Shown here piece after piece: positions 13,208 through 35,798 of a stretch of 48,836 nucleotides of DNA; positions within the stretch are counted from its first letter, which is position 1; each line of letters starts with the position of its first letter. Source of the stretch: an uncultured Thermococci archaeon. GTDB lineage: Archaea > Methanobacteriota_B > Thermococci > Thermococcales > Thermococcaceae. Made by a program: the position numbers and the translations under genes. Location: NCBI GenBank assembly GCA_964615185.1, contig CAZTOS010000006.1, positions 1-48,836 on the forward strand. Direction: 5' to 3'. The notes under the pieces were generated by a model. That model did not search any database, was not told where the DNA came from, and saw only the letters and a list, made by a program, of their open reading frames with translations.

Positions 13208-13630
13208 TCATTCATCTTTTCTGGCATATTCTATTGTTGAGAGATATTTCACGTACTCCATTGTCTTCTTGGGGTTGAGTATTTCCCTTAATAGGTTCTG
13301 GAAGTAGTTGTTCTTGTCATAAGCAACTTCATAGTTAACTGCAACGTCCAAGTAAGAGGGGTGAAAGTTCTCTGCTTCTTCCTTTGTGTAGAGCTCAAAA
13401 GCTATGAAATACCCAAACTTGTCCTCAATAGGCCCTTTAACGTTCTCTATGAACTCAGCAACTCTGTTAACTTTCACTGAATCAGTAGGCTTATCTATAA
13501 TCACCAAAACATCAATCTCATCAAGCTTTCCTTTCAAGTGTGCACCATAAAAGACTACAGAGAGTAAATTATCCCCGTAGAATTCTCTGAGCCTCTTAAA
13601 AAGTGCCCTTTTTGCTTCTTCAATGCTCAT
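13208..13630 (-). CDS. Minimal nucleotidyltransferase (MNT) domain protein
   Basis: LLSVVFYGAHLKG...DEIDVLVI resembles the G-S...D-x-D motif; 140 aa. Confidence 0.75.
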   Translation of the reverse strand: MSIEEAKRALFKRLREFYGDNLLSVVFYGAHLKGKLDEIDVLVIIDKPTDSVKVNRVAEFIENVKGPIEDKFGYFIAFELYTKEEAENFHPSYLDVAVNYEVAYDKNNYFQNLLREILNPKKTMEYVKYLSTIEYARKDE

Positions 13631-13646
13631 GCTTTCACCTCTGCAA

Positions 13647-14012
13647 CTGACCTCCTCCCCTTTGCGAGGGTTCGGCTTAACTCCCTCGCTAATGACGGGA
13701 GGTTTGCGGGCTCATCACCATGAGGTTCAGCCTGCAGGCCCGGTCTAAGGCCCATTACCCCTACCGCAGGACGGCTCAGGGTTATCGCTTAGAGGCCATC
13801 CTTAGAGTTTTCAACCGCTCGAAGGCGGTTTTTGAAAGGACGCTTAACAGCGTCAACCCTCCAATGCTGGAGGGTAACATGAAACCCCTCATCTCATTGG
13901 GTTGTTCTTTGGTGGCCTCTTCGAGGCCTTACTACGTTCAAGAGTTTAAAAGGGTTTCTATTCGAATGCCGATTTTAGAATCACTGCATCCCCGCCCCGA
14001 GGCTTTCACGAG
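13647..14012 (-). mobile_element. Non-autonomous IS200/IS605(tnpB)-derived element, copy 1, with internal promoter and structured-RNA body
   Basis: Minus strand begins GAAAGCCTCGGGGCGGGGATGCAG, carries AAACCCTTTTAAA (13945-13957), and ends GAACCCTCGCAAAGGGGAGGAGGTCAG. Homologous to 21028-21291 and 28704-29060; a 64-bp block is identical to copy 3. No credible ORF. Confidence 0.8.
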
Positions 14013-14074
14013 GTAAAAACCAGTCATGAAGACTTTAAGTTTTTGGTTACCCTCAAAAATACAGCTTAGATAAG

Positions 14075-14091
14075 GTTTCAAACACAAAGTT
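14075..14091 (+). promoter_or_regulatory. SurR box GTT-N3-AAC-N5-GTT upstream of hypCD
   Basis: GTTTCAAACACAAAGTT matches the Thermococcales SurR long motif exactly and abuts the BRE/TATA AAAGTTTTAAAA. Confidence 0.75.
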
Positions 14092-14140
14092 TTAAAAACA
14101 CGTATAAAGCCCGTTCACTAACAAAGAGTGGGTGGGGAAT

Positions 14141-14365
14141 ATGTGTTTAGCAGTCCCAGCTAAGGTTCTTGAAATTAATGGAAAAGTTGCAATTGTTGAT
14201 TTCGGTGGCGTAAAGAGAGAGGCACGGCTTGATCTACTTCCTGATGTTAAAATTGGCGATTATGTGATTGTGCACACGGGGTTTGCAATAGAAAAGTTAG
14301 ATGATAAAACCGCAAAGGAGATTCTGCAGGCATGGGAAGAAGTTCTAAAAGTATTGGAGGAGTGA
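14141..14365 (+). CDS. hypC: [NiFe]-hydrogenase maturation chaperone HypC
   Basis: MCLAVPAKV...VDFGGVKRE...GDYVIVHTGFAI. The N-terminal Met-Cys places the start at 14141. Confidence 0.96.
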   Translation: MCLAVPAKVLEINGKVAIVDFGGVKREARLDLLPDVKIGDYVIVHTGFAIEKLDDKTAKEILQAWEEVLKVLEE

Positions 14366-14367
14366 AC

Positions 14368-15480
14368 ATGGAAGCCTTTAGCGTTTTTAGGGACAAAGAA
14401 CTTGCTCAAAAGATAACAAGACTCATTCACAAGGAGGCTGAAAAAATAGGAAGGACAGTTAAGCTCATGCACGTCTGCGGAACCCATGAGGATACGGTAA
14501 CAAGGAGCGGAATCCGCTCGCTCCTGCCAGAAAACGTTAAAATCGTCAGCGGGCCTGGGTGTCCCGTCTGCATAACCCCAGTTGAGGACATCGTGAAGAT
14601 GCAAGAGATAATGAGGAAAGCCTACAAGGAAGGGGAGAGAATAATTCTAACGACATTTGGCGACATGTATAAAATTCCCACGCCAAGAGGAAGTTTTGCT
14701 GACTTGAAAAGTGAAGGATATGACGTTAGGATAGTCTATTCAATTTATGACGCATACAAAATTGCCAAAAACAATCCAGACAAACTGGTTGTTCATTTCT
14801 CTCCGGGCTTTGAGACCACAACTGCTCCAACTGCTGGAATGCTTAATGCAGCTGTCGAGGAAAATGTGGAGAACTTTAAGATTTATTCTGTCCACCGATT
14901 AACACCTCCCGCTGTTGAAGCTCTCGTAAAGCAGGGAACAGCCTTCAACGGACTCATTACCCCCGGTCATGTTTCCACAATAATAGGAGTTAAGGGCTGG
15001 GAGTACATTACGAAGGAGTATGGAATCCCCCAAGTTATTGCTGGCTTTGAACCCGTTGACGTGTTGATGGGAATCTTAATGCTTCTGAGAATGATAAGGA
15101 AGGGGGAGGTAAAAATAGAGAACGAATACACGAGAGCCGTAAAATATGAAGGAAATGTTGAAGCCCAAAAGTTGATAAATAAGTTCTTTGAAGTTGTAGA
15201 TGCAAAATGGAGAGCCTTAGGAGTGATTCCAAAGAGCGGGCTTGAGCTTAAAGATGAATACAAAAACCTGGAAATAAGAACTTATTATGACGTTGAAGTT
15301 CCTAAGTTGCCTGACTTGGAGAAAGGGTGCCTTTGCGGCGCAATACTCCGCGGATTAGCGTTACCCCCCCAATGTCCTCACTTTGGAAAGACCTGCACTC
15401 CAAGAAATCCAGTTGGACCGTGTATGGTTTCATATGAAGGAACATGTCACATTTTCTATAAGTATGGGGCCTTGTTCTAA
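14368..15480 (+). CDS. hypD: [NiFe]-hydrogenase maturation protein HypD
   Basis: CGTHE, GPGCPVC, GFETT and PGHVS motifs, plus the C-terminal Cys cluster and GPCMVSYEGTC. Confidence 0.97.
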   Translation: MEAFSVFRDKELAQKITRLIHKEAEKIGRTVKLMHVCGTHEDTVTRSGIRSLLPENVKIVSGPGCPVCITPVEDIVKMQEIMRKAYKEGERIILTTFGDMYKIPTPRGSFADLKSEGYDVRIVYSIYDAYKIAKNNPDKLVVHFSPGFETTTAPTAGMLNAAVEENVENFKIYSVHRLTPPAVEALVKQGTAFNGLITPGHVSTIIGVKGWEYITKEYGIPQVIAGFEPVDVLMGILMLLRMIRKGEVKIENEYTRAVKYEGNVEAQKLINKFFEVVDAKWRALGVIPKSGLELKDEYKNLEIRTYYDVEVPKLPDLEKGCLCGAILRGLALPPQCPHFGKTCTPRNPVGPCMVSYEGTCHIFYKYGALF

Positions 15481-15508
15481 TCCCCATTTTTAGTTGAAAA
15501 TTAAAGAG

Positions 15509-16411
15509 CTATACTAAAAGATCACCATCTTCAACATTTATTGTTTCTGGAGTTCTCCAGATAAATGCTCCTTTGCCTTTCAAAACTCGTTTCCTCATGG
15601 CACCTGGGGGAACACCATTTGACTCATATATTAGACTCTGAATATCTGGATCGGTATACAGCATAAGCGTTGGCCCTGAGATGTTGAGGATTGACTCAAT
15701 AGCATATCTTGTTGCCAGTGCCGTTGCCCTTCCTCTCATTGGCTGAGTTAAGAGCGGGATAGCAGCGCTTCCAGCAGGGGTGTACGCCAAAACTGCCGCA
15801 TCATCCAAACCTATGAAAATGTGCCTCCTTTTCCTTACAACTGCCGCAACAATAAGAAATGCCATACCAACAATTGTGATGCTGTGTGCATCACTGAGAT
15901 CTACAAGAATGGAATTTCCAAAATTGGGAGTGCTTCCCTGAAAGAAAGTCTCATCAAGAGAGGTATAACTTTCCTTAATAACCTCTGCATATTTCTCTTC
16001 AGCTGATGCTGCTTGAGGCACACTCTCAATTTTGCCGAACAAAACATCAGCATAAAGCTTTTCCGTTAGACTCCTGTCCAGCTCATAGATTGTTTGAACT
16101 ATTGTTACTGCCGTATATGGATCATCTATTATTCCTTCCTTAGCCATTTTTATTGGGTCAAGACCAGTGGGTTTTCCATCTTCAATTTTTATTATGCTCT
16201 CAAAGCCTTCCTTTGGATAATCACCTGTAGTATCAAAGATTACTATTCCATAATCCTTTTCAAGGTATTTATCTGCCAAGTACTTTATCATTTTTGTTGG
16301 ATCATTATCAATACCAAATATCTTCAGTGTTCTGCCGTGATAAACCGGATCATAATAGATTATCTGCTCCACTCCTTTAAGCAGTTCAACAGCAAGTTTG
16401 CTATATTTCAC
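15509..16411 (-). CDS. Hypothetical protein with degenerate HerA/VirB4-like P-loop fold
   Basis: YYDP...LKIFG(IDNDPTK)...IVIFDTTGDY...GLDPI...IFIGLDDA follows the HerA/VirB4 motif order without GxGKS. Likely GTG start at 16411 behind GGTGA. Confidence 0.55.
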   Translation of the reverse strand: MKYSKLAVELLKGVEQIIYYDPVYHGRTLKIFGIDNDPTKMIKYLADKYLEKDYGIVIFDTTGDYPKEGFESIIKIEDGKPTGLDPIKMAKEGIIDDPYTAVTIVQTIYELDRSLTEKLYADVLFGKIESVPQAASAEEKYAEVIKESYTSLDETFFQGSTPNFGNSILVDLSDAHSITIVGMAFLIVAAVVRKRRHIFIGLDDAAVLAYTPAGSAAIPLLTQPMRGRATALATRYAIESILNISGPTLMLYTDPDIQSLIYESNGVPPGAMRKRVLKGKGAFIWRTPETINVEDGDLLV

Positions 16412-16483
16412 ACAGATCACCATTTTAACTATGCACTTCATGATATAAACGGATATCGGTACATTCATCTTTTGGAGGGAGGA

Positions 16484-17611
16484 TTACAGAACTTTTACAA
16501 TTCGTTCTTTCCATGGACCTATCCTGACCCTAATATATCCCCTAAATCTTTTGTCAACTTCCCTGTCACCTGTATACACCCTTATTGGCTTTTCTACTTT
16601 TGATGGAGTTGCAACGACAATGATGTTTTCCTTTGGAATGTGCCTAAGAACATCTGCAGAGAACTGCTGGTTGCCCCTTCCAAAGAGAAAATTAACACCC
16701 CCCACAACTGTGACAATTATTTTTGGGTTTTTATCAATGAACTTCAGCAAATCCCTTTCTTGAGCATCTTTGACCAAAAGCTTAGCCCTCCCGTCTTTAA
16801 TTTCAACGAGGTCAACCCCCAAAAGAGTTCCATCAATGCCAAGCTTATCCTTAATCCTCTTTATTGTTGAACCTGCTCCCAAGAAGTAGATTCCATCTTC
16901 CAGCTCTTCAACAATAGCTTCAGCCAAAACTTCAAGCTCCTCACTTTCATCAACGTTTGTTGGCTCTTTGGAGCCCTGAACTAAGGTTTCAAGATAAGGA
17001 GTTAGTGCTGTGCCATAAAGCTTGGCTTTTATCTCATCATGTCTGTAAGCGTTTTCATCCAAATCTAAAATTTCACGTTCAACAATTCGAGCATTTCCTT
17101 TAAGGAATTCAACTAACAGCTTAGCAGCATCTTCTGGAGATGAAGCAAAAACTCCTGAAAACATCTTTACTCCCGTTGGAATTCCAAGGATTGGGACTTT
17201 CCTATTAACTGCCGAATATACATCCCTCGCAGTTCCATCTCCCCCTGCAAAAATCAAAATATCAACTTTATCTGCCATCAACTTTGCTAAAGTTTTTGTG
17301 TCTTCACCTGTGGTGTCAGGAATCCTAACTCCAAAAATCTCCTTATAACCAATTTCTCTGTGCTTGAGGACCTGATAAGAAAAATTAAATCCTCTGAGGG
17401 CATATTCACCAAGCTCTTTAGGGCCTGTGAAGAATTCTATGTCCTTAGATTCACCGCAATGTGAAAGCTCACTTAAAAAGAGCTTAGCCAAATCTAATGC
17501 TATCGGCTTAGCTCCTCTTCTTATCGCTTCTTCGACAACTCCATCCGTGCCTTTTAAGGCAACTTTTCCTCCCATTCCAGCTATCGGGTTTACTATTAAA
17601 CCTATCCTCAT
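16484..17611 (-). CDS. ATP-NAD kinase-like protein (COG3199 type)
   Basis: IVNPIAGMGG.VALKGTDG, GGDGTARD, GIPTGVKMFSGVFA and FLFGRGNQQ motifs. Confidence 0.85.
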   Translation of the reverse strand: MRIGLIVNPIAGMGGKVALKGTDGVVEEAIRRGAKPIALDLAKLFLSELSHCGESKDIEFFTGPKELGEYALRGFNFSYQVLKHREIGYKEIFGVRIPDTTGEDTKTLAKLMADKVDILIFAGGDGTARDVYSAVNRKVPILGIPTGVKMFSGVFASSPEDAAKLLVEFLKGNARIVEREILDLDENAYRHDEIKAKLYGTALTPYLETLVQGSKEPTNVDESEELEVLAEAIVEELEDGIYFLGAGSTIKRIKDKLGIDGTLLGVDLVEIKDGRAKLLVKDAQERDLLKFIDKNPKIIVTVVGGVNFLFGRGNQQFSADVLRHIPKENIIVVATPSKVEKPIRVYTGDREVDKRFRGYIRVRIGPWKERIVKVL

Positions 17612-17615
17612 TTTT

Positions 17616-19067
17616 TCACCTCATATATCTCCTTGCAAAAACTGTTAACAGCACCGCCCACATGAACATTCCAAATATAGCTTCACCAGAAGCCAGAACT
17701 CTTCCAATTCCAACCGGATGCAGATCTCCATAACCAAGTGTTGTTGCAGTAACCATGCTGAAGTACACATAATCCAAAAAAGACTTCAAAGGAACTCCAC
17801 TTCCCTCAACACTTTTTGTAATGTAAAAGAGTATCGGGAATATTATATTCACGGTGATAATCCAGATTACAATTGGTCTCTTCCAAGTGGTTCCATATTT
17901 GCATGTTAAATCAGCCAGAAGCAACTCAACATAAGGTTCGAGCAGAAAAATTTTTCTTTTTCCTTTTCTGTATGCCATCATGCGTTGCTTTCTCTTTGCA
18001 ACCATCTCCTTATAATAATATTCATCAGCCTTATCTTTATCTCCTCCCTTTTCCCATGAAGTTCTGGCTAACCGATAGAAAATTTCCTCAATATGAGGAT
18101 TATTAAATTGACACTCCTCCAGAAGTATAAAGCCTTCAACATCCAACTCCGCCACAAGATTAGGTAGAACAGTTAGATTCCAAGTGACATCACTGTAGAA
18201 GCGGACTTTCCGAAAAATTATATTGTTCAGAATTTTGACGTGAACGAACTCCGGTAACTTAATCTTACTTTGAGTTACTTGGACATGACCTGGAATCTCA
18301 AGGTTCTCCATTAACATCTGCCCATCAAATCCTCTAATTAAAATCCTGACCTGTCGTTTAAATCGTGGATTCTCATCAAAGTGAACTCCCCTTAATACAA
18401 GTATCTCAGCTTTAGCATGCTTCCTTGAAGTTTCATTAATTTTAATTCCATGCTCCTCAAGAATTCGTTTTAAAAGGGGGTATCTTGAGTTAATTCCAAT
18501 CCTCCTAACACCACTTAAATTGGTGAGCTCAATTCTCCCATAGGCTTTGCTTCTTTCCCCGTATTCTTCCTCACTTGGTATCTCCTTACCCCGGACATAA
18601 TGGAAAGAATTCATCATTATATATCTGATTTCACTGTTTTTAAGATAAAGAGATCCAGAAAAATTAATTCTAAGCACGTTAACCCCGAATATTGTAGATT
18701 TTGCCACCATAAGAGTTTTTAAAGAGGTTTCAAGTATGATTACCCTTTCAATTGATGAACCATAGATAGTAAGTCCACCGATGTCTGAATTGTCTATTAT
18801 GAGGGTTTTTATTTTTGAATTCTTAAAGACTATCGTCTGCTCGCTTTTAAGGTCTGAAATCCGAACATCATAAAGATAAACGCCCTCAAAATAGGTAATC
18901 CCTCTCCTTATTTTTTTGAGGAAAGCTTTTTTCTTTATCTCTTTGATTTTCTCCCCATATAAGAGCTCGCCCTCATCATAAGGAATATGAAGTGAGCAGA
19001 AATTGGAGCCTTTAAGGGGCTTTGTCCTGCATTTCTGACCATTCTCATATACATATTCACACATCAT
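17616..19067 (-). CDS. Potassium-channel-family protein (2-TM pore at C-terminus) with long repetitive beta-type N-terminal region
   Basis: YFSMVTATTLGYGD pore filter flanked by two hydrophobic helices; N-terminal C-x8-C-x10-C-xx-H. Confidence 0.82.
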   Translation of the reverse strand: MMCEYVYENGQKCRTKPLKGSNFCSLHIPYDEGELLYGEKIKEIKKKAFLKKIRRGITYFEGVYLYDVRISDLKSEQTIVFKNSKIKTLIIDNSDIGGLTIYGSSIERVIILETSLKTLMVAKSTIFGVNVLRINFSGSLYLKNSEIRYIMMNSFHYVRGKEIPSEEEYGERSKAYGRIELTNLSGVRRIGINSRYPLLKRILEEHGIKINETSRKHAKAEILVLRGVHFDENPRFKRQVRILIRGFDGQMLMENLEIPGHVQVTQSKIKLPEFVHVKILNNIIFRKVRFYSDVTWNLTVLPNLVAELDVEGFILLEECQFNNPHIEEIFYRLARTSWEKGGDKDKADEYYYKEMVAKRKQRMMAYRKGKRKIFLLEPYVELLLADLTCKYGTTWKRPIVIWIITVNIIFPILFYITKSVEGSGVPLKSFLDYVYFSMVTATTLGYGDLHPVGIGRVLASGEAIFGMFMWAVLLTVFARRYMR

Positions 19068-19843
19068 TACTCACCCTTAAGCTCCATTTCCTCTTGCATT
19101 GCTCTAATTTTTGCTTTTTCGACTGCCTCTTCATGCTCAATCTTACCCTTGATTCCTTTAACTCTCTTTGAGAGATTCAATATGACATCCTCTGGTCCAT
19201 AAAGAACAACCAAATCTCCAGGAAAAATCTTCGTATCACCACTTGGAGCACCAAGATAAACTTCTTTTCCTCCAACTTTTCTGTAAATTCCAAGAACGAG
19301 AACACCTTCTTTATCCAATTGCAGTTCCCTCAAAGTTTTATTTGCAAGCCAGCTGCTTTTTCTAACTTTTATCTGACCAATTGAATACCCTCGACTTATA
19401 CCCAGAAGCTGATTATAGTCATAGATTTTAAGTGAAGGGAAGAATCTATTAAGAAGTCTCCGAATCACCTTTCTCATCATTTTATCTATCCATTTAGACC
19501 TCACAAAAAGATACAAAGCTAATAAACCACTCAAAAGTATAACAAAATTCTGTTTAACCTCCTCAGCACTCTTGCCAATGAATGTCAACACAAGAGTTGC
19601 TATAGCCGAAGTTATTCCTGCACTGCCCAGAAAAATTAGAATTCTAATTATCTTTCTTCGTATTGGATGCGAAACAACATATTCCGACTCCGAAGTAGTA
19701 AAGCCAGTTCCAGAAAAAGCAGACTGAGCCTGAAAAGCTGCAACATCTCTTGAGAGCCCAGTCATCTCTAATGCAACCGCTCCAATTCTAACAATTATGA
19801 TTGAAATAAGAACAACCAACAGGAATGATATGAGGGCTATCAG
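19067..19843 (-). CDS. Membrane protein with TrkA-C (RCK_C) domain
   Basis: ALEMTGLSRDVAAFQAQSAFSGTGFTTSESE followed by WLANKTLRELQL..EGVLVLGI...GDLVVLYG. The RBS-proximal start appears to be CTG at 19843; the ORF track uses TTG 19819. Confidence 0.85.
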   Translation of the reverse strand: MIALISFLLVVLISIIIVRIGAVALEMTGLSRDVAAFQAQSAFSGTGFTTSESEYVVSHPIRRKIIRILIFLGSAGITSAIATLVLTFIGKSAEEVKQNFVILLSGLLALYLFVRSKWIDKMMRKVIRRLLNRFFPSLKIYDYNQLLGISRGYSIGQIKVRKSSWLANKTLRELQLDKEGVLVLGIYRKVGGKEVYLGAPSGDTKIFPGDLVVLYGPEDVILNLSKRVKGIKGKIEHEEAVEKAKIRAMQEEMELKGE

Positions 19844-19885
19844 AGGACATCACCTTCCAGATTATGTATCTCAGATAGAACATAA

Positions 19886-20836
19886 TTAAAGATTTCTGCT
19901 CTTGAGCTTCCTCATGTAAAACTTTCTGCCTTCATATTCAAGCTCAATAATCTTTCCTTCCTTTAAAAGTCTCTCAACAACACTCCAATCTGCATCGGCC
20001 TTTTTGAGAAAGTCTTCAACGGCATCTTCTCTCATCGGGTGGACAGCTGTTATGCTCAGTAAATCTTCCTCAACATTTCCTGTAAAAGCGAATGCATTCC
20101 CCTCATAGCCAATGAGGTACTCCACTCTATCACTTCCTAAAGCCTTGGCAAAAATCTGAAACGCCCTGTTTATCGTCTCCTCATTAGCTGGCTTAACCCA
20201 TCTCTCTGCTGGAGGCCTCGTTGGGATAGCTATGTAAGCTATATCTGGTTCAAGCTCCTTCAAAAACTCAGCAATCTTCTCGAATTCGTCTCCATAATCA
20301 ACTCCGTCGATGAGCATAGTCTCTGTTACGAGTTTTCCTTTGAACTCTTTTCTAAATTTGAGCATTCCATCAAGGATTTCATCAACCTTTAAGCTTTTAT
20401 GAGGTCTGTCAATTTTTCTCCATAGTTTCTCACTTACAGCATCAAGCTTTAGGGAGACAAAATCAAACTTCATTAAATCTTCCCTAACATCCTCCCTCCA
20501 GATTAGGGAGGAGTTCGTTAGAATTGCCAAAGGTATTCCAAGTTCTTTCAACAGCTCAGCTTCCTTTCCAAGGTTAATGTCCAAAGTTGGTTCGCCATCT
20601 GGAACGAATGTGACGTAATCAACGTGCTCTCCTTTTGCTCTGGCTTTCTCAACTTTTTCTTTAACTTCCTTGAGGATTAGCTCTGGGTTATAAAATGCCC
20701 TCCTTTCAATTTCCATCTTAATTGTCCTCCCAATTTGGCAGTAAACACAAGCATATGAGCATACTTTGTCTGGAATGTTGTTTATGCCCAAGCTTTTTCC
20801 CAATCTGCGAGATGGAACAGGACCAAATGCCATCAT
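19886..20836 (-). CDS. Radical SAM Fe-S oxidoreductase (COG0731-like)
   Basis: FGPVPSRRLGKSLGIN, CSYACVYC and GEPTL motifs. Confidence 0.88.
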   Translation of the reverse strand: MMAFGPVPSRRLGKSLGINNIPDKVCSYACVYCQIGRTIKMEIERRAFYNPELILKEVKEKVEKARAKGEHVDYVTFVPDGEPTLDINLGKEAELLKELGIPLAILTNSSLIWREDVREDLMKFDFVSLKLDAVSEKLWRKIDRPHKSLKVDEILDGMLKFRKEFKGKLVTETMLIDGVDYGDEFEKIAEFLKELEPDIAYIAIPTRPPAERWVKPANEETINRAFQIFAKALGSDRVEYLIGYEGNAFAFTGNVEEDLLSITAVHPMREDAVEDFLKKADADWSVVERLLKEGKIIELEYEGRKFYMRKLKSRNL

Positions 20837-20850
20837 TGACTTTCACCAAA

Positions 20851-20866
20851 ATTAGGTAAACCTAAT
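20851..20866. promoter_or_regulatory. DtxR/MntR-type palindrome ATTAGG-TAAA-CCTAAT
   Basis: Inverted repeat between the minus-strand TATA (CTTTATA, ~20871-20877) and the RBS of the radical SAM gene. Same core as the feo promoter boxes. Confidence 0.6.
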
Positions 20867-20930
20867 GGTGTATAAAGGTTTCGAATAGATTTATGAAGTT
20901 TGAACAAAACAAAAAAATAAGACTGAAGAT

Positions 20931-21029
20931 TCAAGTATGCTTTGACTTCTTCTCTTCAACTTGCTTCCAAAGCTCTTCAAAGCTTTCAATAGCCCTTTGA
21001 AGTGCTAAACTTAGATCCCTCGTACTCCT
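20931..21029 (-). pseudogene. Orphan 3' gene fragment abutting the right end of element copy 2
   Basis: Open frame RSTRDLSLALQRAIESFEELWKQVEEKKSKHT* with no start, followed by a T-rich terminator-like tract. Confidence 0.35.
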
Positions 21030-21291
21030 AACCTCCTCCCCTTTGCGAGGGTTTCAGCCCCTCGCCAGTGGCGGGAAGGTTTGCGAGCCCATTACTCCCC
21101 AATAGGTTCGGGGTTATCGCTTAGAGGTCACTCCAATGATTTCAACCACTTAAGGGAGGTCTTAAAAGGACGCTTTACAGCGTCAACCCTCTGAGAGCAG
21201 AAGGTAATGTGAAACCCCTTTGAGGGGTATGGGGCTTTTTCAATGCCATTACACTGACTCTCTGCATCCCTCGCCCCAAGGCTCTCAAAAG
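21028..21291 (-). mobile_element. Non-autonomous IS200/IS605-derived element, copy 2 (shorter, promoter block missing)
   Basis: Minus strand TTTTGAGAGCCTTGGGGCGAGGGATGCAG...GACGCTGTAAAGCGTC...GCGATAACCCCGA...GAAACCCTCGCAAAGGGGAGGAGGTTAG is colinear with copies 1 and 3. Confidence 0.78.
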
Positions 21292-21301
21292 AAAAAAGTA
21301 A

Positions 21302-21665
21302 AGATAGTCTGTGGAGAGGATGAAGTTATCCACTGCAAGACACATGGACAAGAAGGTAATTGGCTACGAAGTTCATCTCCAGATGAACCATGAAAATGTC
21401 ATCGATGAAGAAGATGGTTTTTGAAGATAATTTACACGCCAAGACATACCTCTGGGAGCATGTATATCTACGAGCCGAGAAAGAAGATACTGTTTTCAGG
21501 AGATACTCTTTTTGCAAATAGTGTTATATCAAACATTTACGACTCTGGGAGCTTGGGAGAATACTTCAACTCCTTGAGAAGGCTCAACACCCCAAGATAA
21601 AACTTCTGCTCCCGGGACATGAGTGGATTTCAGAGAACGTCGAAGAAGACATAGAAAAAAAAAAC
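21302..21665 (+). pseudogene. Metallo-beta-lactamase-fold hydrolase remnant (C-terminal half, frameshifted)
   Basis: Hand translation: LKIIYTPRHTSGSMYIYEPRKKILFSGDTLF...GSLGEYFNSLRRLNT / KIKLLLPGHEWISENVEEDIEK, giving the TPGHT.GS, FSGD and PGH motifs. No HxHxDH half. Confidence 0.75.
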
Positions 21666-21730
21666 GATTAAAGGAGTTATAAACAGATTTCCAGAGGCTG
21701 AGAAAACTCAAAAAGGTTATTTTATTAAGA

Positions 21731-22333
21731 TTAAATTCGCCTCCCCTCCATCACGTAAATTGCCGATCCTCCAATGTACTTTGCATGGTCGCTCATCCTC
21801 TCAAGGTGCCTGAGTATCAAAGCCTCAACGGCCTTACAAATATCCAAATCTTCCTTGAGCTCCTCTATGCTGGTTATATAAAGCTCATCCACCTTTTTGT
21901 CCAATTCTAAAAGCCTTCCGGTAGATACCTCATCTCTTTCGAGAAACGCTCTGAGTGCAAGCTCAATCATTTCCCTGACAATCCTGAGTGCCTGTTTTGA
22001 CTTCTCAAACTCACAGCTGGCACCGGTTATTTTCAGTGTCCCCTCTATCTCCATGGCATATCTTGAGATCCTATACAGGTCGTAACTGACATCTATCGAT
22101 GCCTGGATGTATCTGAGATCAGACGCCATTGGCTGATACCTTATGAGCAGTTCGGTTGCTATCTCAACAAGCTCATCCCTGAGGATGTGAAGCTTGCTTG
22201 ACTTGTCCTCTATGCTATCACTCCCACCCTCTAAGATATTTTCGAGGGAGTCAATGCACTCCAAAACCGTGCTTCCCATCTCTTGGAGTAGCTTCTCAAT
22301 CTGCTTTAATCCCAAATCCAACAACTTTCTCAT
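21731..22333 (-). CDS. phoU: Phosphate uptake regulator PhoU
   Basis: [10 protein letters not shown] and [11 protein letters not shown] motifs; last gene of the pst operon. Confidence 0.92.
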
Positions 22334-23094
22334 CCTAACGCCCCCGTAACATACTGTTCGGTAAGCTCATGTTCAGGATTTTCAAACACCCTCTTTGTAG
22401 GACCAACCTCTATCAGCTCGCCAAGGTAAAGGAAAGCAACATAATCACTCACACGGGCAGCTTGTGCTGGAGAATGGGTAACTAAAATTATCGTGTATTC
22501 CTTTTTGAGTTCAAACAATAGCTCTTCTATCTTCTTCGTTCCAACGGGGTCTATGTTTGCCGTCGGCTCATCCATCAGTAGAATCTTTGGCTTCATTGCA
22601 AGAGTCCTCGCGATTACCAACCTCTGCCTCTGCCCACCACTTAGGTTTGAGGGATAATCATCAAGCCTATCCTTCACCTCATCCCACAACGCCGCCTTCT
22701 TCAGCGCCCATTTAACCCTCTTGTCTAGCTCTTCTTTTGACCTCACAAGCCTATTGAGCTTCAGTCCTATGGCAACATTATCGTAAATCGTTAGATGGGG
22801 AAAAGGGTTGGGATACTGAAAAACCATGCCAACTTCTCTCCTAACTTCAATCGGATCAACATCTGGAGCGTAGATGTTCCTTCCAAAGATTCTAACCTCC
22901 CCTTCCACTCTCGCTTCGCTGTTGAGCTCAAGAAGCCTGTTGAATGTTCTGAGCATGGTAGATTTTCCACAGCCACTCGGCCCCATCAGAGCAAAGACCA
23001 CATTTTTTGGAACTTTCAAGTTCACATCTTTGATCACCATGTTTTTACCATAGTAAACCTTCAGATCCTTAGTTTCAAGGACAAGCTCGATCAT
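22330..23094 (-). CDS. pstB: Phosphate ABC transporter ATPase
   Basis: [36 protein letters not shown] and TEQYVTG motifs. Confidence 0.96.
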
Positions 23095-23924
23095 AGCTTC
23101 ACCTCCCTAAGACTGAGCCTTACCGGGATGAATATCCCAAGGAATATTAAAAGTAGAATCAGCGATGCTCCCCATGCCATCTCGTGGTACTCCTTTGCGG
23201 GGCTCTGAATTAGGGTATATATGAGTAGAGGAATCGCCCCTACAGGTTTTGTGATTCCAATCTGATACGTCTGGTATGAGCCACCAACTGTGAAAAGGAG
23301 GGGAGCTGTTTCACCAGCTACCTTCGCAATTCCTATGAGGACACCAGTTAAAATTCCTCTCTTTGCCATTGGTACTAAAACCCTGAAAACCGCCTTTACC
23401 CTTGTGAGTCCAAGGGAGAAAGCTGCCTCTCTATATGCGAACGGAATTTGTCTCATTGCTTCATGCGTGTAAACTGCAACATAGGGCATCATTATTATCG
23501 CCAGTGCCAGTGCCCCAGCAAGAGCTGAGTACGTGCCCATTGGGACAACCAAAATCTGCATGACGAAGACTCCTACAAGTATCGTCGGAAATTCAAGCAT
23601 TATCTGGAGCAGAGACTTAGTTGCCTTTCCGAGCGTACTCTCTGGATACTCGTAGGCATAAATTCCCACGAGGAAAGCAACTGGGAGACCAATGAGAGAG
23701 GCTAGAAAAACTAAAATAAACGTTCCAATAATAGCTGGTCCTATCCCACCATCGGAGAGCGTTCCGGTTATGAATGTTGCCCCCCTATTCAAGATTACAT
23801 GGATACCATTCTTAAACACGCTGTAAATTATGTGAAAGAGGGGAAAGAACATTAGCACGGTTAAAGCGCCAATAAGGAACAGGAACAGCTTTTCTTTGAG
23901 CTTTCTGACGTTATAGCCTGACAT
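23091..23924 (-). CDS. pstA: Phosphate ABC transporter permease
   Basis: [18 protein letters not shown] and [10 protein letters not shown] motifs. Confidence 0.95.
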
Positions 23925-24825
23925 TTGCCTCCCACCTCCTCAAGAGGTAAATCCCCGCCAAATTAACAACCAGACCTATTGCAAACAGAACTAAACCAGC
24001 GGCAAACAGAGCTGAGGTCATGTACTCGTATATGAAGGCATTTCCAAACTGGTTTGCTATCAATGAGGATATCGTGTAGCCAGGAGCGAATAAAGCCAGG
24101 CTCAAGTTGAAGGTGTTCCCTATAACCAGGCTGACCGCCGCGGTCTCCCCAATAGCCCTCCCAAATGCTAAAATTATGCCTGAGTAAATAGCTGGCTTTA
24201 CATAGCCAAGTAAGATTTTTGTCGCCTCAAGTCTGGTTGCACCAAGGCTGTAAATTGCTTCACGATATGTGAACGGAATCATCTGGTATGCCTCCCTTAT
24301 TATGGCTGAGGCAAATGGAGTTACCATTATTCCGAGCAGAATACCTGCGGAGAGGTAGCTGAATCCCGTTATCGGGGGATAAGAAAACAGGGGCAGAAAA
24401 GACAGGTGATCGTGTAAAGGTTGCATAACAATCTTTTTTAAAAGGGGAACAAGAACAAAAACTCCCCATATTCCATAGATTATTGTTGGCAAACCCGCCA
24501 TAACATCCGAAAGGATTATCAGCCAGGTTTTAATCCTCTTTGGAGCATAATCAACAACAAAAACCGAGTAAGCCAAGGAAAGCGGCAGGGTTATCAATAT
24601 TGCTATCACTGACGTATAGATGCTTCCCCATATCGCCGCCAATACACCGTAATGTTCTCTACTCGGCTCTTCTGGGGCTTTCCAGACGTTTTTTAGATAG
24701 ATGTCAAGTCCTTCCCTGTGAAATATTGGCATTGAATTATAGAAATAAACCAGAAGCATAAGGACAAAAAGGCCTAAAACAAAACCTACAAAGGGAAGCA
24801 AGATGTGCTTCAGATCAACCTTCAT
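23911..24825 (-). CDS. pstC: Phosphate ABC transporter permease
   Basis: AGLPTIIYGIWG, GRAIGETAAV and TISSLIANQFG motifs. Confidence 0.95.
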   Translation of the reverse strand: MKVDLKHILLPFVGFVLGLFVLMLLVYFYNSMPIFHREGLDIYLKNVWKAPEEPSREHYGVLAAIWGSIYTSVIAILITLPLSLAYSVFVVDYAPKRIKTWLIILSDVMAGLPTIIYGIWGVFVLVPLLKKIVMQPLHDHLSFLPLFSYPPITGFSYLSAGILLGIMVTPFASAIIREAYQMIPFTYREAIYSLGATRLEATKILLGYVKPAIYSGIILAFGRAIGETAAVSLVIGNTFNLSLALFAPGYTISSLIANQFGNAFIYEYMTSALFAAGLVLFAIGLVVNLAGIYLLRRWEANVRL

Positions 24826-24830
24826 TTACC

Positions 24831-25558
24831 TCACCCAGTAGTGTCATTCAGTAGTATCATTTTACTTTCAACGTTACTTTTTCCAACCCTAACAATCCTT
24901 ATGGTTCCTTCATCTCCCCACCTATTCCACCAGCTTCCTGAAAGGGAAGCAGTTTGCACCTCGGGAAATCCCCACCTAAGGGTAAGCTCATTCTGTGGAG
25001 GTGGCCGCTAAAGAAACCATTAATCTCTCCATCTAATATTCCAATGACGTCTTCCTTCCTCTTCCATAAAGAGAGGGGGTAATGGGAAAAGAGGAGAGAG
25101 TTGGGTTTTATTATTTTACTGAGCCACTCCAACAGCTCATCACTTGGCTTGCACTTTCTTGCCTTAATCTTGGGGGTTACAAAGATTAACCTCGTTCCAT
25201 TGAAATCAACGTAGTAGTTCTCTTCCCCAAATATCATCCTATATACATCCAATCCAAATGCCTTGTTGATGTCGTGGTTACCTGGAATTGTGAAGACCTT
25301 TATCCCGTTCCTCTCAAGTGGTTTTATGAAAAATTCTTTAAACGTTAGGTACCAGCACAACACCCGATCGACATAACTTTTTTCAGCCATCGCCGCTATG
25401 TCTCCCGTTACCGCTACAAATTCCGGTCTCAGGGAGATAATTTTTCTTGCCACTCCCAGAAATAACCTTTTCGGATCAACGCTCACACCGTAGATTGCCC
25501 CGCACTCTTCGGCAGTTGTAACGGCGTGGATGTCGGTTACATGGACAAACCTCATCAT
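24831..25558 (-). pseudogene. Calcineurin-like metallophosphoesterase with -1 frameshift near 24991
   Basis: DIH, GD, GNHD and GHLH motifs. Adding one A after GHLHR gives NELTLRWGFPEVQTASLSGSWW...GTIRIVRV...NDTTG*, which ends at 24831 over the pstC RBS. Confidence 0.75.
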
Positions 25559-26361
25559 ACCACCCTGCTGGCTTTTATTGGGAGGCCTACCTCCACATAC
25601 TTAACCCTCTTAACCGAAAGGATGCTCTTCAAAACATTTTCCTTGCTCCAGTAGTTCCTTATCTCCCAGATCACGTTCTTTGGCTTCAAGGACAGTATTT
25701 TTGGAATTAAACTGTCAAACTTGATGCATCCTTCACCTAGAGCCTTGTGCTCATCCCTTGCCCCGTTGTTGTCGTGAAGATGGACATGCTCTATTCCGGG
25801 CAGGAGTAGGTACTCTTCCATGCTGAATCCATATTTAAGTGATGTTATAAACGCATGTCCTATATCAAAGCACACGTCAAGAAATGGAATTAACTCATGT
25901 GGAAAAGCGCCAACCCTGTTGTCCGTTAAGTTTTCAATGACCAGCTTGACCCCATACTCCTCAGCTACTGCAGAAAGCTCCATCATCTGTTTCCTTGTGT
26001 TTATAAACGCTTTGTGGTACTTATCCTTAATATCACCACCATGAACAACGACGTATTTTGCATCAAGCATCTGGGCTATCTTAAAAACATTTTCCATAAT
26101 CTCTACATTCTTTCTTGAATTTACACCGAGGTCAACGCTGACGTTCCTTCCATCCGAACACAGACCATAAATGGTGAAATCAACATCAAGAGTTAGGAGG
26201 TCATGAAGGATTTCCCAGTCTATGCCTTTCTCAGTTAGAACCCCAACATTCTCAAAGCCGAGCTCAACAACATCAATTGGTAGTTCGTCAATAGAAAATC
26301 CCTTTCCTGAAATCTCCTTGATTATATAGGAGTTTACCCCGATTTTCATATCCATCACCAC
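25555..26361 (-). CDS. Sugar-phosphate isomerase/AP endonuclease 2 (TIM barrel) family protein
   Basis: VVVHGG, IENL, CFDIGHA, HVHLHDN and DEH.ALGEG motifs. Start may be 26349-26361. Confidence 0.85.
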   Translation of the reverse strand: MVMDMKIGVNSYIIKEISGKGFSIDELPIDVVELGFENVGVLTEKGIDWEILHDLLTLDVDFTIYGLCSDGRNVSVDLGVNSRKNVEIMENVFKIAQMLDAKYVVVHGGDIKDKYHKAFINTRKQMMELSAVAEEYGVKLVIENLTDNRVGAFPHELIPFLDVCFDIGHAFITSLKYGFSMEEYLLLPGIEHVHLHDNNGARDEHKALGEGCIKFDSLIPKILSLKPKNVIWEIRNYWSKENVLKSILSVKRVKYVEVGLPIKASRVV

Positions 26362-26381
26362 TATATAAGGAAAAGAAAAGA

Positions 26382-27557
26382 TCAGCCTTCTTGAACCATC
26401 TCAACGGCCCTGAGACCTATCTCAGCAACTTCCTTTGGTAGTCCAACATATCCGGGTGCAATGTTTTCTGGCTTTTGTCCTTCTGTAAGAACCCACCTGA
26501 GGAACTCTTTGATTGCTCTAGCTTTCTCCGGGCTGTAGTGCTTTCCACCCTTGTTCTGCCAGACAAGGAGATGTGTGAATGCAACAATTGGATATGAGTT
26601 CTCCCCTGGTGCATCCAATAACTGCTTAAGATCTTCCTTGTAGCCCTCTGTTGGATCTGGAATGAAAGCTTTAACATTCGCAACTGCGGCTTTAATCGTC
26701 TCCTCTGTTGGTTTAACGAATTTTCCAGCTTTGTTTTCCAAGGCTACAACGGGAAGATTTTCATTTATTGCGTAAGACAGCTCTGTATATGCTATGCTAT
26801 ATTTTGTTTGCTTTAGAGCCGCAACAACACCTGAATTACCTTTTCCACCAATTCCCCTTCCCATCTTGTCCACTGGCCAATCTACAACTTTACCGGCACC
26901 AACCTTTTCCGCCCACTCCTTGCTTATCAGGCTGAGGTATGTGGTAAATATGGCAGTTGTTCCGCTTGAATCACTTCTGTGAATAACGATTATCTTTTCG
27001 TGGGGGAGGTTTGCATTTGGGTTGAGCTTCTTTATTGCGGGGTCATCCCAATACTCGATTTCACCAAGGAATATCTTTGCGAGAACATCCCTGCTGAGCT
27101 TCAGCTCATTAACACTAGGCACGTTGAAAACAACGACGACAGCTCCAACAACTTCTGGAAACTGAAGTGGTTGGTCTCCAGCTTCAAGGAACTTTTTCCA
27201 AGTTGATTCTTTAACCGGCGGATCACTTCTTCCAATGTCTGTGAGTCTTTTTAGAAAAGCCTCTTGACCATGTCCACTTCCACCACCTTCGTATTCAATT
27301 TTAACATTCGGATTAAGCTTCTGGTAGATTTCAATCCATTTCTGAATTTGGTACATTGGAAAGGTCGCACCAGTGGTACGTATAATTATCTGTTGCTGGG
27401 GAGCTTGTTTGGTTTTAGTTGTGGTCTCAGTGATTGTTTTGGTATTTGTAACGGTTTTAGTAATCGTTTTTTCTCCTTGTTCTTGGCTTATGCATCCACT
27501 AGCTACAAGTCCGAGAGCCAATACAAACACCAACACGAGGCCGACAAACTTTTTCAT
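26382..27557 (-). CDS. pstS: Phosphate ABC transporter substrate-binding lipoprotein
   Basis: Lipobox ASGC; TGATFP, GGGSGHG, HRSDSSGTT and YPIVAFT motifs. Confidence 0.96.
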   Translation of the reverse strand: MKKFVGLVLVFVLALGLVASGCISQEQGEKTITKTVTNTKTITETTTKTKQAPQQQIIIRTTGATFPMYQIQKWIEIYQKLNPNVKIEYEGGGSGHGQEAFLKRLTDIGRSDPPVKESTWKKFLEAGDQPLQFPEVVGAVVVVFNVPSVNELKLSRDVLAKIFLGEIEYWDDPAIKKLNPNANLPHEKIIVIHRSDSSGTTAIFTTYLSLISKEWAEKVGAGKVVDWPVDKMGRGIGGKGNSGVVAALKQTKYSIAYTELSYAINENLPVVALENKAGKFVKPTEETIKAAVANVKAFIPDPTEGYKEDLKQLLDAPGENSYPIVAFTHLLVWQNKGGKHYSPEKARAIKEFLRWVLTEGQKPENIAPGYVGLPKEVAEIGLRAVEMVQEG

Positions 27558-27800
27558 AAGGTATCACCAATCTTTCTTATTTTAACACAAAAATATAAAG
27601 ATTGTCGCAATAGAATATATTCAAACTAATATCTATATAGAGAGCTCTATATTCAATATAGCTACTCATTTACACATTCCCAAATGTTTCTCCTTTCTAT
27701 TTTCCAGTTATTGCCTTTTTAACCTCTAAAAGAGTTTTTAATCCATCTATTATTGGCTTTTCTGGATTTTAACCTTTGGTTATACTCAAATTTGTCCAAC

Positions 27801-27830
27801 AAAGTTTTTAAACTTTTTTGCATATGCACA
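27801..27830 (+). promoter_or_regulatory. BRE/TATA plus TGCATATGCA palindromic operator (site 1)
   Basis: AAAGTTTTTAAAC-TTTTT-TGCATATGCA-CA, then GGGGTGA RBS and ATG 27846. Confidence 0.65.
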
Positions 27831-27845
27831 TAATGGGGTGATGTC

Positions 27846-28451
27846 ATGAGAATCGCAGTACCGAGTTCAAGAAGTGGGGGATTAGAAGACACAATTTCAA
27901 TAGTCTTTGCGAGGGCTCCTGTGTTCACAATTGTTGATATAGAGAATGGAGAGATTAAAGACGTTAGAATTATCAAAAACGAAGCTATGAATGTTCCAAG
28001 TGGGGCAAGTCCAATAGTTGTGCAAATGCTCATTAAGGAAGGGGTTGATGCAGTGGTTGCCCCTCAACTTGGCCCAAACGCAATGGCTACTCTGCAAGCT
28101 GCAGGAATTAAGGTTTACACATTTCCACCGGGAACCCCAATAAAAGAAGCTGTTGAAAAGATAAGCAAAGGCGAAGCTCCACAATTACCTGAATACCCAC
28201 AACCTTTCCAGGCACCCTATCCACCTCAACAATCTCAAGCTCCGCCATATTACCCACCCGCTCCTCAGCCACAAGCTTATTATCCTCCATTCCCAATACC
28301 AGCAAGGCCACCAATACCAGAGCCACCAAGGCATAAGGATTGCATCCACTATAAGGATGGCAAGTGTGAATTTTGGAATTTAGCTGTTCACGCCGATGAT
28401 CCCGCCTGCCCGTTTTTCGTCCCAAAGAATGCCCCTTGGAGGTGGTGGTGA
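27846..28451 (+). CDS. NifB/NifX (dinitrogenase FeMo-cofactor-binding-like) domain protein with Pro/Gln/Tyr-rich linker and Cys-rich C-terminal module
   Basis: MRIAVPS...FARAPVFTIVDI...GPNAMATLQAAGIKVY, then PYPPQQ-type repeats, then HKDCIHY.DGKC...DDPACPFF. Confidence 0.85.
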   Translation: MRIAVPSSRSGGLEDTISIVFARAPVFTIVDIENGEIKDVRIIKNEAMNVPSGASPIVVQMLIKEGVDAVVAPQLGPNAMATLQAAGIKVYTFPPGTPIKEAVEKISKGEAPQLPEYPQPFQAPYPPQQSQAPPYYPPAPQPQAYYPPFPIPARPPIPEPPRHKDCIHYKDGKCEFWNLAVHADDPACPFFVPKNAPWRWW

Positions 28452-28657
28452 TGCCGTGGGGTTGGGGCTGGTATTGGTGGAAGCCCTGGCCTGGAAGGGG
28501 CCCATTCAGCTGGCTCCCGCCATGGCTGAGGCCTGGATGGGTTTTTGGAAGAGGAGCGTGCTGGTGGCTCTTTAGAGGACCATGGGGATATTATGCATGG
28601 CTTAGGAATTACTATCCATACTACCACCCCTGGTGGGGTTACTGGTGGGAGTGGTGA
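28451..28657 (+). CDS. 68-aa Trp-rich small protein (18 Trp)
   Basis: ATG overlaps the TGA of the upstream gene, with a GGAGGTGG RBS. Core PWPGRGPFSWLPPWLRPGW is shared with the paralog at 35512. Confidence 0.8.
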   Translation: MPWGWGWYWWKPWPGRGPFSWLPPWLRPGWVFGRGACWWLFRGPWGYYAWLRNYYPYYHPWWGYWWEW

Positions 28658-28703
28658 ATTCTTTCCTCTGAAATTTTTATTTTTGCGTTAGATTTGGTCA
28701 AAA

Positions 28704-29060
28704 CTGACCTCCTCCCCGCCCTTAAGGGCGAGGGTTCGGCTTAACTCCCTCGCCAGTGACGGGGAGGTTTGCGGGCTCATCTCCTACTCCCGTTGCCGGT
28801 TTCGGCTCAGCCCGCAGGCCCGGTCTTAGGCCCATTACCCCTACCGCGCAGAGCGGCTCGGGGTTATCGCTCGAAGGCGGTTTTTGAAGGGACGCTTAAC
28901 AGCGTCATCCCTCCCAACGAGGAGGGACACGATAAACCCTTTGGAGAGGGTATCTGACGGTGGCCTCTTCAAGGCCCTACTACGTTCAAGAGTTTAAAAG
29001 GGTTTCTATTCGAATGCCGATTTTAGAATCACTGCATCCCCACCCCAAGGCTTTCAAAAG
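28704..29060 (-). mobile_element. Non-autonomous IS200/IS605-derived element, copy 3 (intact right-end hairpin)
   Basis: Minus strand ends GAACCCTCGCCCTTAAGGGCGGGGAGGAGGTCAG (subterminal hairpin CGCCCT-TA-AGGGCG). Internal AAACCCTTTTAAA at 28993-29005. No credible ORF. Confidence 0.85.
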
Positions 29061-29181
29061 AAAAAGGAAGGACCAGTCTCTGTCCTTACACATATTATCC
29101 TTAATGATCTCTTTGATTTTTTGAAGAGAAAATCATTAACCACAGAAAACAAGAAAAACCTCGGGTGATCATGGAGTACTT

Positions 29182-29332
29182 TCACAATCTTGGGGACCAG
29201 CTGGATGCTCTGAGGTCGTCTGAGACTATTTCCATCACTCCGCCGCTTTTCAGCTTTATACTTGCTTTCCTTACTTTTTCCTGCCTTTCTCTTGGCTCTA
29301 ACCCTCTAGCATCCACAACCTCCGTTTTTCAT
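29182..29332 (-). pseudogene. DUF2249/TusA(SirA)-like small protein remnant
   Basis: GAGGTG-ATG, then an A5 run. Removing one A gives MKTEVVDARGLEPRERQEKVRKASIKLKSGGVMEIVSDD, followed by a second apparent shift. Confidence 0.5.
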
Positions 29333-30506: not shown

Positions 30507-30566
30507 TTTCTCACCTTATTTCTCACCACAGTAAAAAAGAAAAAATCTCCACATTCACCAATTTTC

Positions 30567-31463: not shown

Positions 31464-31996
31464 TCTTCCACCCCCTTGGGCAGGCTATACTTCATCGGGG
31501 AAAGCTCCTCTAGGAAGCCCTTCATCTTTGGATAGAATAGGACAAGCAGTAAGCCAAAGACTAAGTGCGGTGCAATTCCCCATGCATCCCCTGCCAATGA
31601 CCATCCTTCCTCTACTTCTCCTCCCCACACGAGGGGATAATAAGTATCTAAGATGTCCGCGACCATTACTAGGATGTTTAGTGCCATCAGGAGCATTGCC
31701 ATGGCCCAGCCAACAAACACATATCCATAGTATTTTTTGTCGCCTTGATGCCACATATAAACCCCTTTCAGCAGTAAAGTCCCTACCGTGAAAAGCGCCA
31801 GACCTGAAAAGATGCTGGGAAATGCAAAGGGTATGTATGTCCCCAGCACTGGAACCCCTATTTGTAAAGTTCCTCCCAGATGGGATACCCATCCTGTCAT
31901 TCCATTGTAAAACTGAAGCACTCCGTACACCAAGTAAAGTAGGGATATTATAAAGATATAGATGCTTTCATTCGTTCCTATTTTTAGCTTCTTCAT
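31460..31996 (-). CDS. Hypothetical membrane protein (~4 TM)
   Basis: Hydrophobic segments; translationally coupled to feoB and to the downstream gene. Confidence 0.75.
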   Translation of the reverse strand: MKKLKIGTNESIYIFIISLLYLVYGVLQFYNGMTGWVSHLGGTLQIGVPVLGTYIPFAFPSIFSGLALFTVGTLLLKGVYMWHQGDKKYYGYVFVGWAMAMLLMALNILVMVADILDTYYPLVWGGEVEEGWSLAGDAWGIAPHLVFGLLLVLFYPKMKGFLEELSPMKYSLPKGVEE

Positions 31997-34427: not shown

Positions 34428-34503
34428 TTACATCACCTCTCCTATGGACTCCGCTTCATCTTTCTCGGGGATTTTTCCCCATGTATACTTTTGTATATTC
34501 TAC

Positions 34504-34620: not shown

Positions 34621-34730
34621 TTGAAATGTCCAGAAATTTACATTATTAGGTTTCTTTGAGGAACTATGGAAGTTCCATAAAATGCCTCCAATTATTTAAA
34701 TACCTCATAGGCTCTCCAGATTTGCTCCTT

Positions 34731-35760: not shown

Positions 35761-35798
35761 TTTTCAAGCCTCGCCTTTCAGAACGGGGAGTAGGTCAG
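35761..35798 (+). mobile_element. Minimal IS200/IS605 end remnant (PATE-like)
   Basis: TTTTCAAGCCTCGCCTTTCAGAACGGGGAGTAGGTCAG resembles a left-end start (AAGCC) fused to the right-end hairpin/GGGGAGGAGGTCAG of copies 1-3. Confidence 0.6.

Follow-up and report, generated by a model that had tools for sequence, protein, structure and literature searches.

A protein-free IS200/IS605 mini-transposon lineage of Thermococcaceae with an omega-RNA and its own 5' domain, probably homing via TnpA and TnpB in trans

What does a transposon without a gene do with a promoter and a guide-RNA-like 3' end? This question is raised by three dispersed, homologous elements, here called E1, E2 and E3, on the minus strand of contig CAZTOS010000006.1 of an uncultured Thermococci archaeon (Thermococcaceae; assembly GCA_964615185.1), whose positions 1 to 48,836 form the window, i.e., the whole stretch of DNA analysed. 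An earlier note, made from the sequence alone, read them as stand-alone guide-RNA genes that could load TnpB and together form a scattered CRISPR-like guide set, or as domesticated non-coding RNAs; the three elements, the motifs it quoted and the three differing 3' flanks are all recovered in place. E1–E3 are mini-transposons of the IS200/IS605 type that lack an open reading frame (ORF), i.e., palindrome-associated transposable elements (PATEs), and belong to one family. This family is probably a self-propagating, protein-free lineage of omega-RNA-bearing PATEs that homes via TnpA and TnpB acting in trans.

E1 (13647..14012, 366 bp) is complete and has the layout of a full copy: a TTAC/TGAC motif, the left end, the tnpA promoter (B recognition element and TATA box, BRE/TATA), a 5' domain of ~135 nt, the omega-RNA core and a terminal TCAG; the element measures 350-410 bp. 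The target motif TTAC (14013..14016), which is the left cleavage site and the predicted transposon-adjacent motif, precedes a left end (13984..14012) with the DNA guide AAAG (14006-14003) and a shortened subterminal hairpin. The promoter (13945..13958) has the position of the tnpA promoter in the autonomous element, and the cassette-specific 5' RNA domain (13788..13922, its start predicted from spacing) is folded into four hairpins, one with a K-loop-like motif, and a closing long-range helix. The omega-RNA core and right end (13647..13786), which match four tnpB elements at their 3' ends, include a K-turn-like stem (13732-13708) and finish with GAAC (13673-13670), a hairpin and TCAG (13650-13647). 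The predicted guide (13627..13646) is host DNA, covering the ribosome site and the start of ORF 13208-13630. All these features lie on the minus strand, as do E2 and E3.

E3 (28704..29065) has TTCC at 29069-29066, its promoter at 29006-28993 and a predicted start at 28970; part of its 5' domain is lost, and its core is full and carries a GNRA/loop-E arm that E1 does not have. The two copies are 75% identical over 389 alignment columns (E=1e-73), and the 64-bp identical block previously ascribed to them is exact (13993-13930 = 29041-28978). E2 (21028..21297; TTAC at 21301-21298, terminus TTAG) is a decayed cassette whose likeness to E1 is split into two segments (E=5e-15 and 5e-9). Its promoter and the middle of its omega-RNA core are deleted, and the promoter deletion recurs in copies on contigs C2, C34, C38 and C106. 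Of the extents first proposed, the left boundary of E1 at 14012 is upheld by an empty site, whereas those of E2 and E3, read from the target motif, move to 21297 and 29065. The right flanks of E2 (21008..21027) and E3 (28684..28703), at the guide position on the minus strand, are host DNA as well. The 480 bases preceding the right ends of E1–E3 contain no tblastn match to the genome's TnpB, in agreement with the earlier observation that no tnpA or tnpB frame remains.

The origin of the guides can be read from orthologous sites in same-genus genomes. In G002 (C6 33666/33667), positions 14012-13647 of E1 are exactly absent, TTTAC is joined to the guide and there is no target duplication; the E1 guide is identical in 18 of 20 positions, the first 12 without exception, to the bases directly following TTTAC. 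For the copy on contig C1, the site is empty and the flank follows TTGAC in G002, G003, G004 and G007, and TTGAT in G006, while the C31 copy has a two-sided empty site with TTGAT or TTGAC in G003, G004, G006 and G007. Exact two-sided empty sites were found at three of the seven loci tested (E1, C1 and C31), which is the scarless insertion on the 3' side of a constant 4-5 nt motif that defines an IS200/IS605 PATE. To judge from this comparison, each guide is host DNA at the insertion site and not an acquired spacer, because relatives have the exact empty site, with the motif joined to the guide and no duplication. The right flank of E2 is preceded by TTTAC in five of the seven same-genus genomes (G002, G003, G004, G006 and G007), and that of E3 by TTTAC in G002 and TTTGC in G006. 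In the same comparison, the left flank of E2 derives from another place than its right flank, and the left flank of E3 has no match in the seven genomes; thus, these two copies appear to sit at chromosomal deletion or rearrangement joints. Domestication as host non-coding RNAs is unlikely, since the seven genomes show an empty or rearranged locus at each of the three window sites.

The ends combine subterminal hairpins with 4-nt DNA guides on both sides (AAAG or CAAG plus hairpin on the left; GAAC, hairpin and TCAG on the right) and are shared with a tnpA-tnpB element on contig C16. Of the 51 full elements extracted, 47 are not of the CAAG type, and 34 of these have TTAC 4-14 nt ahead of the left-end guide (background 3.5%); the four CAAG copies have TGAC (two), TGAT (one) or TTAT (one). 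Left guide and target motif thus covary, AAAG going with TTAC in 30/43 copies and CAAG with TGAC or TGAT in 3/4. This pairing of guide and motif is the rule of target choice in IS200/IS605 transposons. The corresponding model is described in PMC10055086. Minimal elements of ~46 bp, with both ends on one hairpin, are also present (C32:14405-14453, C13:26045-26092 and C67:~795-828), and two of the three sit directly after TTAC.

The genome encodes one Y1 tnpA, on C16, and has 9-10 tnpB matches, most of which share the core and the TCAG terminus of the cassettes. A complete 424-aa tnpB frame is present on C56; the other copies are interrupted by contig ends or frameshifted, and one is linked to tnpA on C16. 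The E1 core reaches alignment scores of 86-92 with the 3' ends of four tnpB elements, against a shuffled maximum of 30-34. The left end and promoter of E1 align with the left end and tnpA promoter of the C16 element at 54 (shuffled maximum 33); for a C4 copy, the latter alignment scores 71 (shuffled maximum 28). Such scores, far above shuffles, bear out the IS605-like ends, promoter and omega-RNA homology initially proposed. The parent family (IS605/IS1341 with an RIIr-5-type TnpB) has the same ends and core as the cassettes, but encodes TnpB, in some cases with TnpA or a small upstream ORF, and its first hairpin is longer (median 30 nt versus 17 nt in cassettes).

Among 30 TnpB homologues, the RuvC-I motif, glycine in place of the RuvC-II glutamate and a second glutamate motif are each present in 29, and the NAD/NSD motif is present in 28. 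As far as motifs can tell, the clade has retained D, an alternative E and D as catalytic residues and does not qualify as nuclease-dead (TldR-type), which speaks against the inactive partner that had been considered. Motif likeness only, namely the E to G change in RuvC-II, a second E further on and NADxxG, places the parents with the RIIr-5 IS605/IS1341 elements, a rearranged clade predicted to be active in PMC10691335. Taken together, IS605 ends, promoter, omega-RNA homology and tnpB and tnpA genes in the same genome make action in trans plausible, with a TnpB that is presumably compatible with the cassette RNA. The idea of stand-alone guide-RNA genes loading TnpB hence survives in a qualified form, with the decayed E2 falling outside it.

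In all four tnpA-linked tnpB copies (L188, L193, L196 and L203), no ATG is in frame and a TTAAAA run is followed by ACG; a -1 frameshift yielding a TnpA-TnpB fusion or a non-ATG start is possible. A mutational loss of the C16 tnpB start is rejected, as the junction is identical in all four. A short ORF, ribbon-helix-helix-like by eye, precedes tnpB on C42 (~9740-9980), C113 (~2700-2970) and C56 (~80-235). The C42 and C113 tnpB elements have CAAG/TGAC-type left ends, and two target-motif types occur in one genome.

Promoter and RNA structure were analysed in an alignment (A2) of 47 of the 51 elements, from which E2, L035, L037 and L154 were excluded as short or deleted; it does not include 14 right ends for which no left end was detected, and the copies of relatives were selected by likeness to E1, favouring intact ones. 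Column identity in BRE/TATA is 0.82, compared to 0.63 and 0.66 in the flanking spacers, and the TATA box lies 27-31 nt upstream of a GRAGAGG 5' strand in 39/47 copies. The promoter spacing of T. kodakarensis, with TATA 23 and BRE 33 nt upstream of the start (PMC4247193), would place the starts near 13922 in E1 and 28970 in E3. The predicted E1 transcript folds with z=-4.68. Paired states make up 99.0% in the core and 90.7% in the 5' domain, with 58 double changes against 12.8 in shuffled alignments and 100 against 40.3, respectively; none of 500 shuffles reached these values in either part, and slid controls were lower. The long-range helix of the 5' domain is the weakest (85.9% paired).

A GNRA loop closes the arm in all 40 copies that have it (GCAA 22, GTAA 11, GCGA 6 and GTGA 1), a loop-E-like GAA/AGTA pair is present in 36/47 copies, and only two of 35 tnpB-linked cores contain the GNRA/loop-E arm. 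The K-turn-like stem occurs in 42/47 copies and the K-loop-like hairpin in 22/47; these labels were assigned without a motif tool. A conserved palindrome (13928-13914, minus strand; A2 columns 96-110) straddles the predicted start, and its upstream arm, outside the predicted transcript, is still 0.88 conserved; it could be a DNA operator or an alternative fold. Mimicry of tRNA by the 5' domain is not favoured, as ARAGORN finds no gene in the window and the loop of the last hairpin is not conserved as a T-loop.

How far the family extends depends on which module is followed. The 5'-domain profile finds 19 sites in this genome, far beyond the three copies initially counted; none is at a tnpB and three are cut by contig ends. 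The covariance model of this domain detects 15 of 36 same-family genomes and none of 34 others in the class, and BLAST matches occur in 27 of 36 same-family genomes and none of 24 outside, a count that takes in tnpB-linked ends. The 5' domain does not appear to derive from the parent insertion sequence, because the profile has no match in 30 tnpB loci of relatives and no alignment to parent elements exceeds shuffles in eight comparisons. In a midpoint-rooted tree of 82 cores, whose bootstrap is not fully settled, 45 of 47 standalone cores fall on one branch (support 99/98); the exceptions are two standalone copies with tnpB-type cores, and two tnpB elements have a standalone-type arm. One branch together with such module exchanges points to a long-lived, module-swapping lineage and not to repeated decay of tnpB copies. 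At two sites common to genomes G030 and G033, the left-end and promoter segments follow the genome (91/91 identical within G033) and not the locus (70-75%). A tnpB that is 49.5% identical, with the same core and right end and no 5' domain, is present on viral contig L218 (IMGVR_UViG_648936722_000001).

Elements of this kind are already published. PATEs often encode omega-RNAs that require TnpB in trans (PMC10055086), standalone omega-RNAs function in trans in a role called unknown (PMC10691335), and a transcribed PATE is described in Halobacterium (PMC4615843). Like the cassettes, these PATEs are ORF-less, retain both ends and the omega-RNA, rely on enzymes in trans, and take the guide from the flank, so that the target is the empty donor joint. 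The cassettes differ from the described PATEs in the retained tnpA promoter, the ~135-nt domain and a GNRA/loop-E arm absent from tnpB-linked RNA, and the accessible passages of these three papers describe no added 5' domain for PATEs. New here is a single lineage across Thermococcaceae that has a covarying 5' domain and a GNRA/loop-E arm of its own. A literature search that did not extend to subscription papers turned up none that names the family, although PMC10691335 and bioRxiv supplements may list it; a motif search of 12 of the 15 supplementary files of PMC4247193 found no occurrence, and the main text of PMC3849170 contains none of five terms looked for.

Similar in design are the dispersed repeats sRkB/sRkC and sRk48/sRk52 of P. 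abyssi, which stem from orfB/tnpB 3' ends. According to the parts of PMC3124441 available, repeats with BRE/TATA are transcribed, unlike promoter-less ones, the 3' ends are located a short way into the variable flank, the K-turns bind L7Ae and a loop E was proposed; in these parts they are not interpreted as guide RNAs. Compared by eye only, they share the design of the cassettes but seem to belong to other sequence families, with conserved ends GGAAACGG and CCAGAACGG in P. abyssi and GGAGGTCAG in the cassettes.

HgcC (RF00062) resembles the cassettes in that its consensus terminates in the same right-end hairpin and GAGGAGGUCAG, but it has no counterpart of the 5' domain. Of the T. kodakarensis members, HgcC1-3 derive from transposase genes, unlike HgcC4-5 (PMC4247193). 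Within the window, no Rfam family reaches the gathering score. A permissive scan returned nothing but sub-threshold matches to HgcC and sot0042 on the tnpB locus; the HgcC model gives E3 38.1 bits, below its 50-bit cut-off, and does not list E1 or E2 at E<=1. A second, HgcC-type family uses the same right end (C114:1985-2087, 60.4 bits; C31:7618-7719, 48.2 bits), and one HgcC-type element is inverted before the C31 tnpB.

A homing cycle would explain these properties as follows. Comparative data indicate that the element inserts 3' of TTAC/TGAC without duplication through its intact IS605 ends, and TnpA from a tnpA-tnpB element elsewhere in the genome would, by analogy with the family, move it. 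The retained tnpA promoter may produce an RNA of ~275 nt plus flank, comprising the 5' domain, the omega-RNA core and 16-20 nt of host guide. The TnpB with rearranged RuvC-II would bind this RNA in trans and cut motif and guide, which are joined only in the empty allele, and repair would copy the element back, resulting in homing and retention. Thermococcales are polyploid, which would supply filled templates. For Geobacillus elements, cutting of the empty allele followed by repair from the filled one has been shown (PMC10055086). The 5' domain would most likely lend stability to the RNA by burying its 5' end and offering an L7Ae site, and the stabilised RNA may then compete with omega-RNAs made in cis for TnpB; this is the weakest step. 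Many copies, E2 among them, would be decayed DNA-only passengers. The trans-guide reading, with transcription, TnpA mobilisation and TnpB loading deduced from sequence features, is likely. A stronger version, in which the cassette is a hyperparasitic RNA gene that evolved as a separate lineage across Thermococcaceae and whose dedicated ~135-nt module and GNRA/loop-E arm actively process, stabilise or load the guide RNA so that it outcompetes cis omega-RNAs for TnpB, is rather doubtful; if true, it would represent a natural 'enhanced sgRNA' (single guide RNA) for a thermophilic TnpB as well as a functional RNA domain of a new type.

Several observations weigh against homing by a functional RNA. 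Promoter, core and right end are all kept at only 8 of the 19 sites, counted with a pattern that overlooks the K-turn-like stem of E1, and the five sites with the common promoter deletion, E2 included, have nevertheless spread or persisted, which shows that the RNA is not needed for movement. E2, E3, C3 and one C4 site lack a clean two-sided empty allele. Genome G033 has cassettes, with copies whose TATA is broken, but neither tnpA nor tnpB of this clade was found there, and co-occurrence with tnpB is weak across the 21 genomes common to both searches (8/10 with the 5' domain versus 6/11 without). The covariation is inflated by kinship, by selection for E1-like copies and by deriving the structure from the same rows; G-U cells exceed A-C cells only 135 to 63, and the hairpins could form in a single-stranded DNA intermediate instead. 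Much of this would suit a DNA-only miniature element in which the ends matter and the RNA is a passive relic, its hairpins kept by descent, gene conversion or a benefit to the single-stranded intermediate. Promoter-less or core-deleted copies in at least five places, the ~46-bp fused ends, segments homogenised between copies and the persistence of G033 copies without enzymes found are in line with it. It is nonetheless unlikely, given the conservation and fixed spacing of the TATA box, compensatory changes in both core and 5' domain, and exclusively GNRA loops beside a loop-E-like motif absent from most tnpB-linked cores. GNRA loops, loop-E-like motifs, promoter spacing and compensatory changes are features of RNA.

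A CRISPR-like or regulatory repertoire, in which TnpB or a dead derivative is guided to viruses, plasmids or host promoters, would make use of the many different guides on compatible scaffolds (37 right-end flanks in this genome) and of the trans activity reported for standalone omega-RNAs (PMC10691335). It is the least probable of all, because the guides are orthologous host DNA, the partner has retained its catalytic motifs in most of the 30 homologues, and motif-adjacent matches stay at control level: a single flank of the 37 has a TTAC/TGAC-adjacent genome match of at least 14/16, compared to 1.7% of 300 controls, and this match, a perfect 20/20 after TTGAC on C27, is the empty allele of the C1 locus itself. 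Viral scans with the window guides gave no match for E1 and E2 and two for E3, their likeness stopping at 20 AT-rich bases; the element has no match in the phage or plasmid collections searched, nor the cassette arm in viral contigs. The scattered guide set of the earlier note is not supported. If instead the transcript read into the next gene and the cassette were kept as a portable promoter or cis-leader, one would expect arrangements such as that of E1, which ends 17 nt before a same-strand ORF, or of P. abyssi sRkB, which reads into PAB0571 (PMC3124441), and 21/37 flanks do face or lie in a same-strand ORF. However, the other 16 of the 37 are directed at or located in ORFs on the opposite strand, G002 has the same gene order around an empty E1 site, and such a role accounts for single copies and not for the conservation of the core, making it very improbable as a general explanation. 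A decoy function, by which plentiful cassette RNA, as a host-favoured or competing RNA, titrates TnpB and restrains the parent element, would fit the excess of cassette sites (19) over tnpB matches (9-10) and the strong promoter-like site of their own. As the right end/guide junction is exact, as targeting requires, this function has little probability; it is also compatible with homing, with no exclusivity between the two.

The family is also of wider interest. These elements provide a well-bounded archaeal test case for the role of standalone omega-RNAs, and the comparative data point to an RNA that guards its own insertion site and not to an immune set. The 5' domain and the arm represent naturally occurring variation in a thermostable TnpB guide scaffold, and older 'repeat ncRNAs' of Thermococcales (sRkB/C and HgcC4-5) could be read as elements of the same kind.

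Some further features accompany the cassettes. A fourth remnant in the window, a lone right-end hairpin with terminal TCAG (35765..35798, plus strand), has a flank that follows TTAC in G002, where ~420 bp of upstream host DNA occur that are absent here. A composite transposon of E3 and this remnant is rejected, as their orientations differ and no matching left end is seen. Outside the window, a 15.5-kb stretch is found twice at 99.6% identity (C27:10841-26405 and C1:21-15581), bounded by a tnpB element and by a cassette site that is filled on C1 and empty on C27. The right flanks beyond it differ by 11%, that of C27 being closer to G002, and this double occurrence could be due to a duplication or to a second strain present in the assembly.

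Positions 21298-21736 are a broken gene piece with several stops in all frames, cut at the left end of E2, and this DNA continues in G005 and G001. The block 29061-35440 next to E3, with radical SAM genes, and the block 21737-27750 next to E2, with a phosphate ABC transporter and PhoU, have no counterpart in the syntenic regions of G002-G005 and G007, and 29061-30600 was found in none of seven same-genus genomes. Finally, a 2233-aa ORF (42052-48753, minus strand) is 63-75% similar to relatives in patches only.

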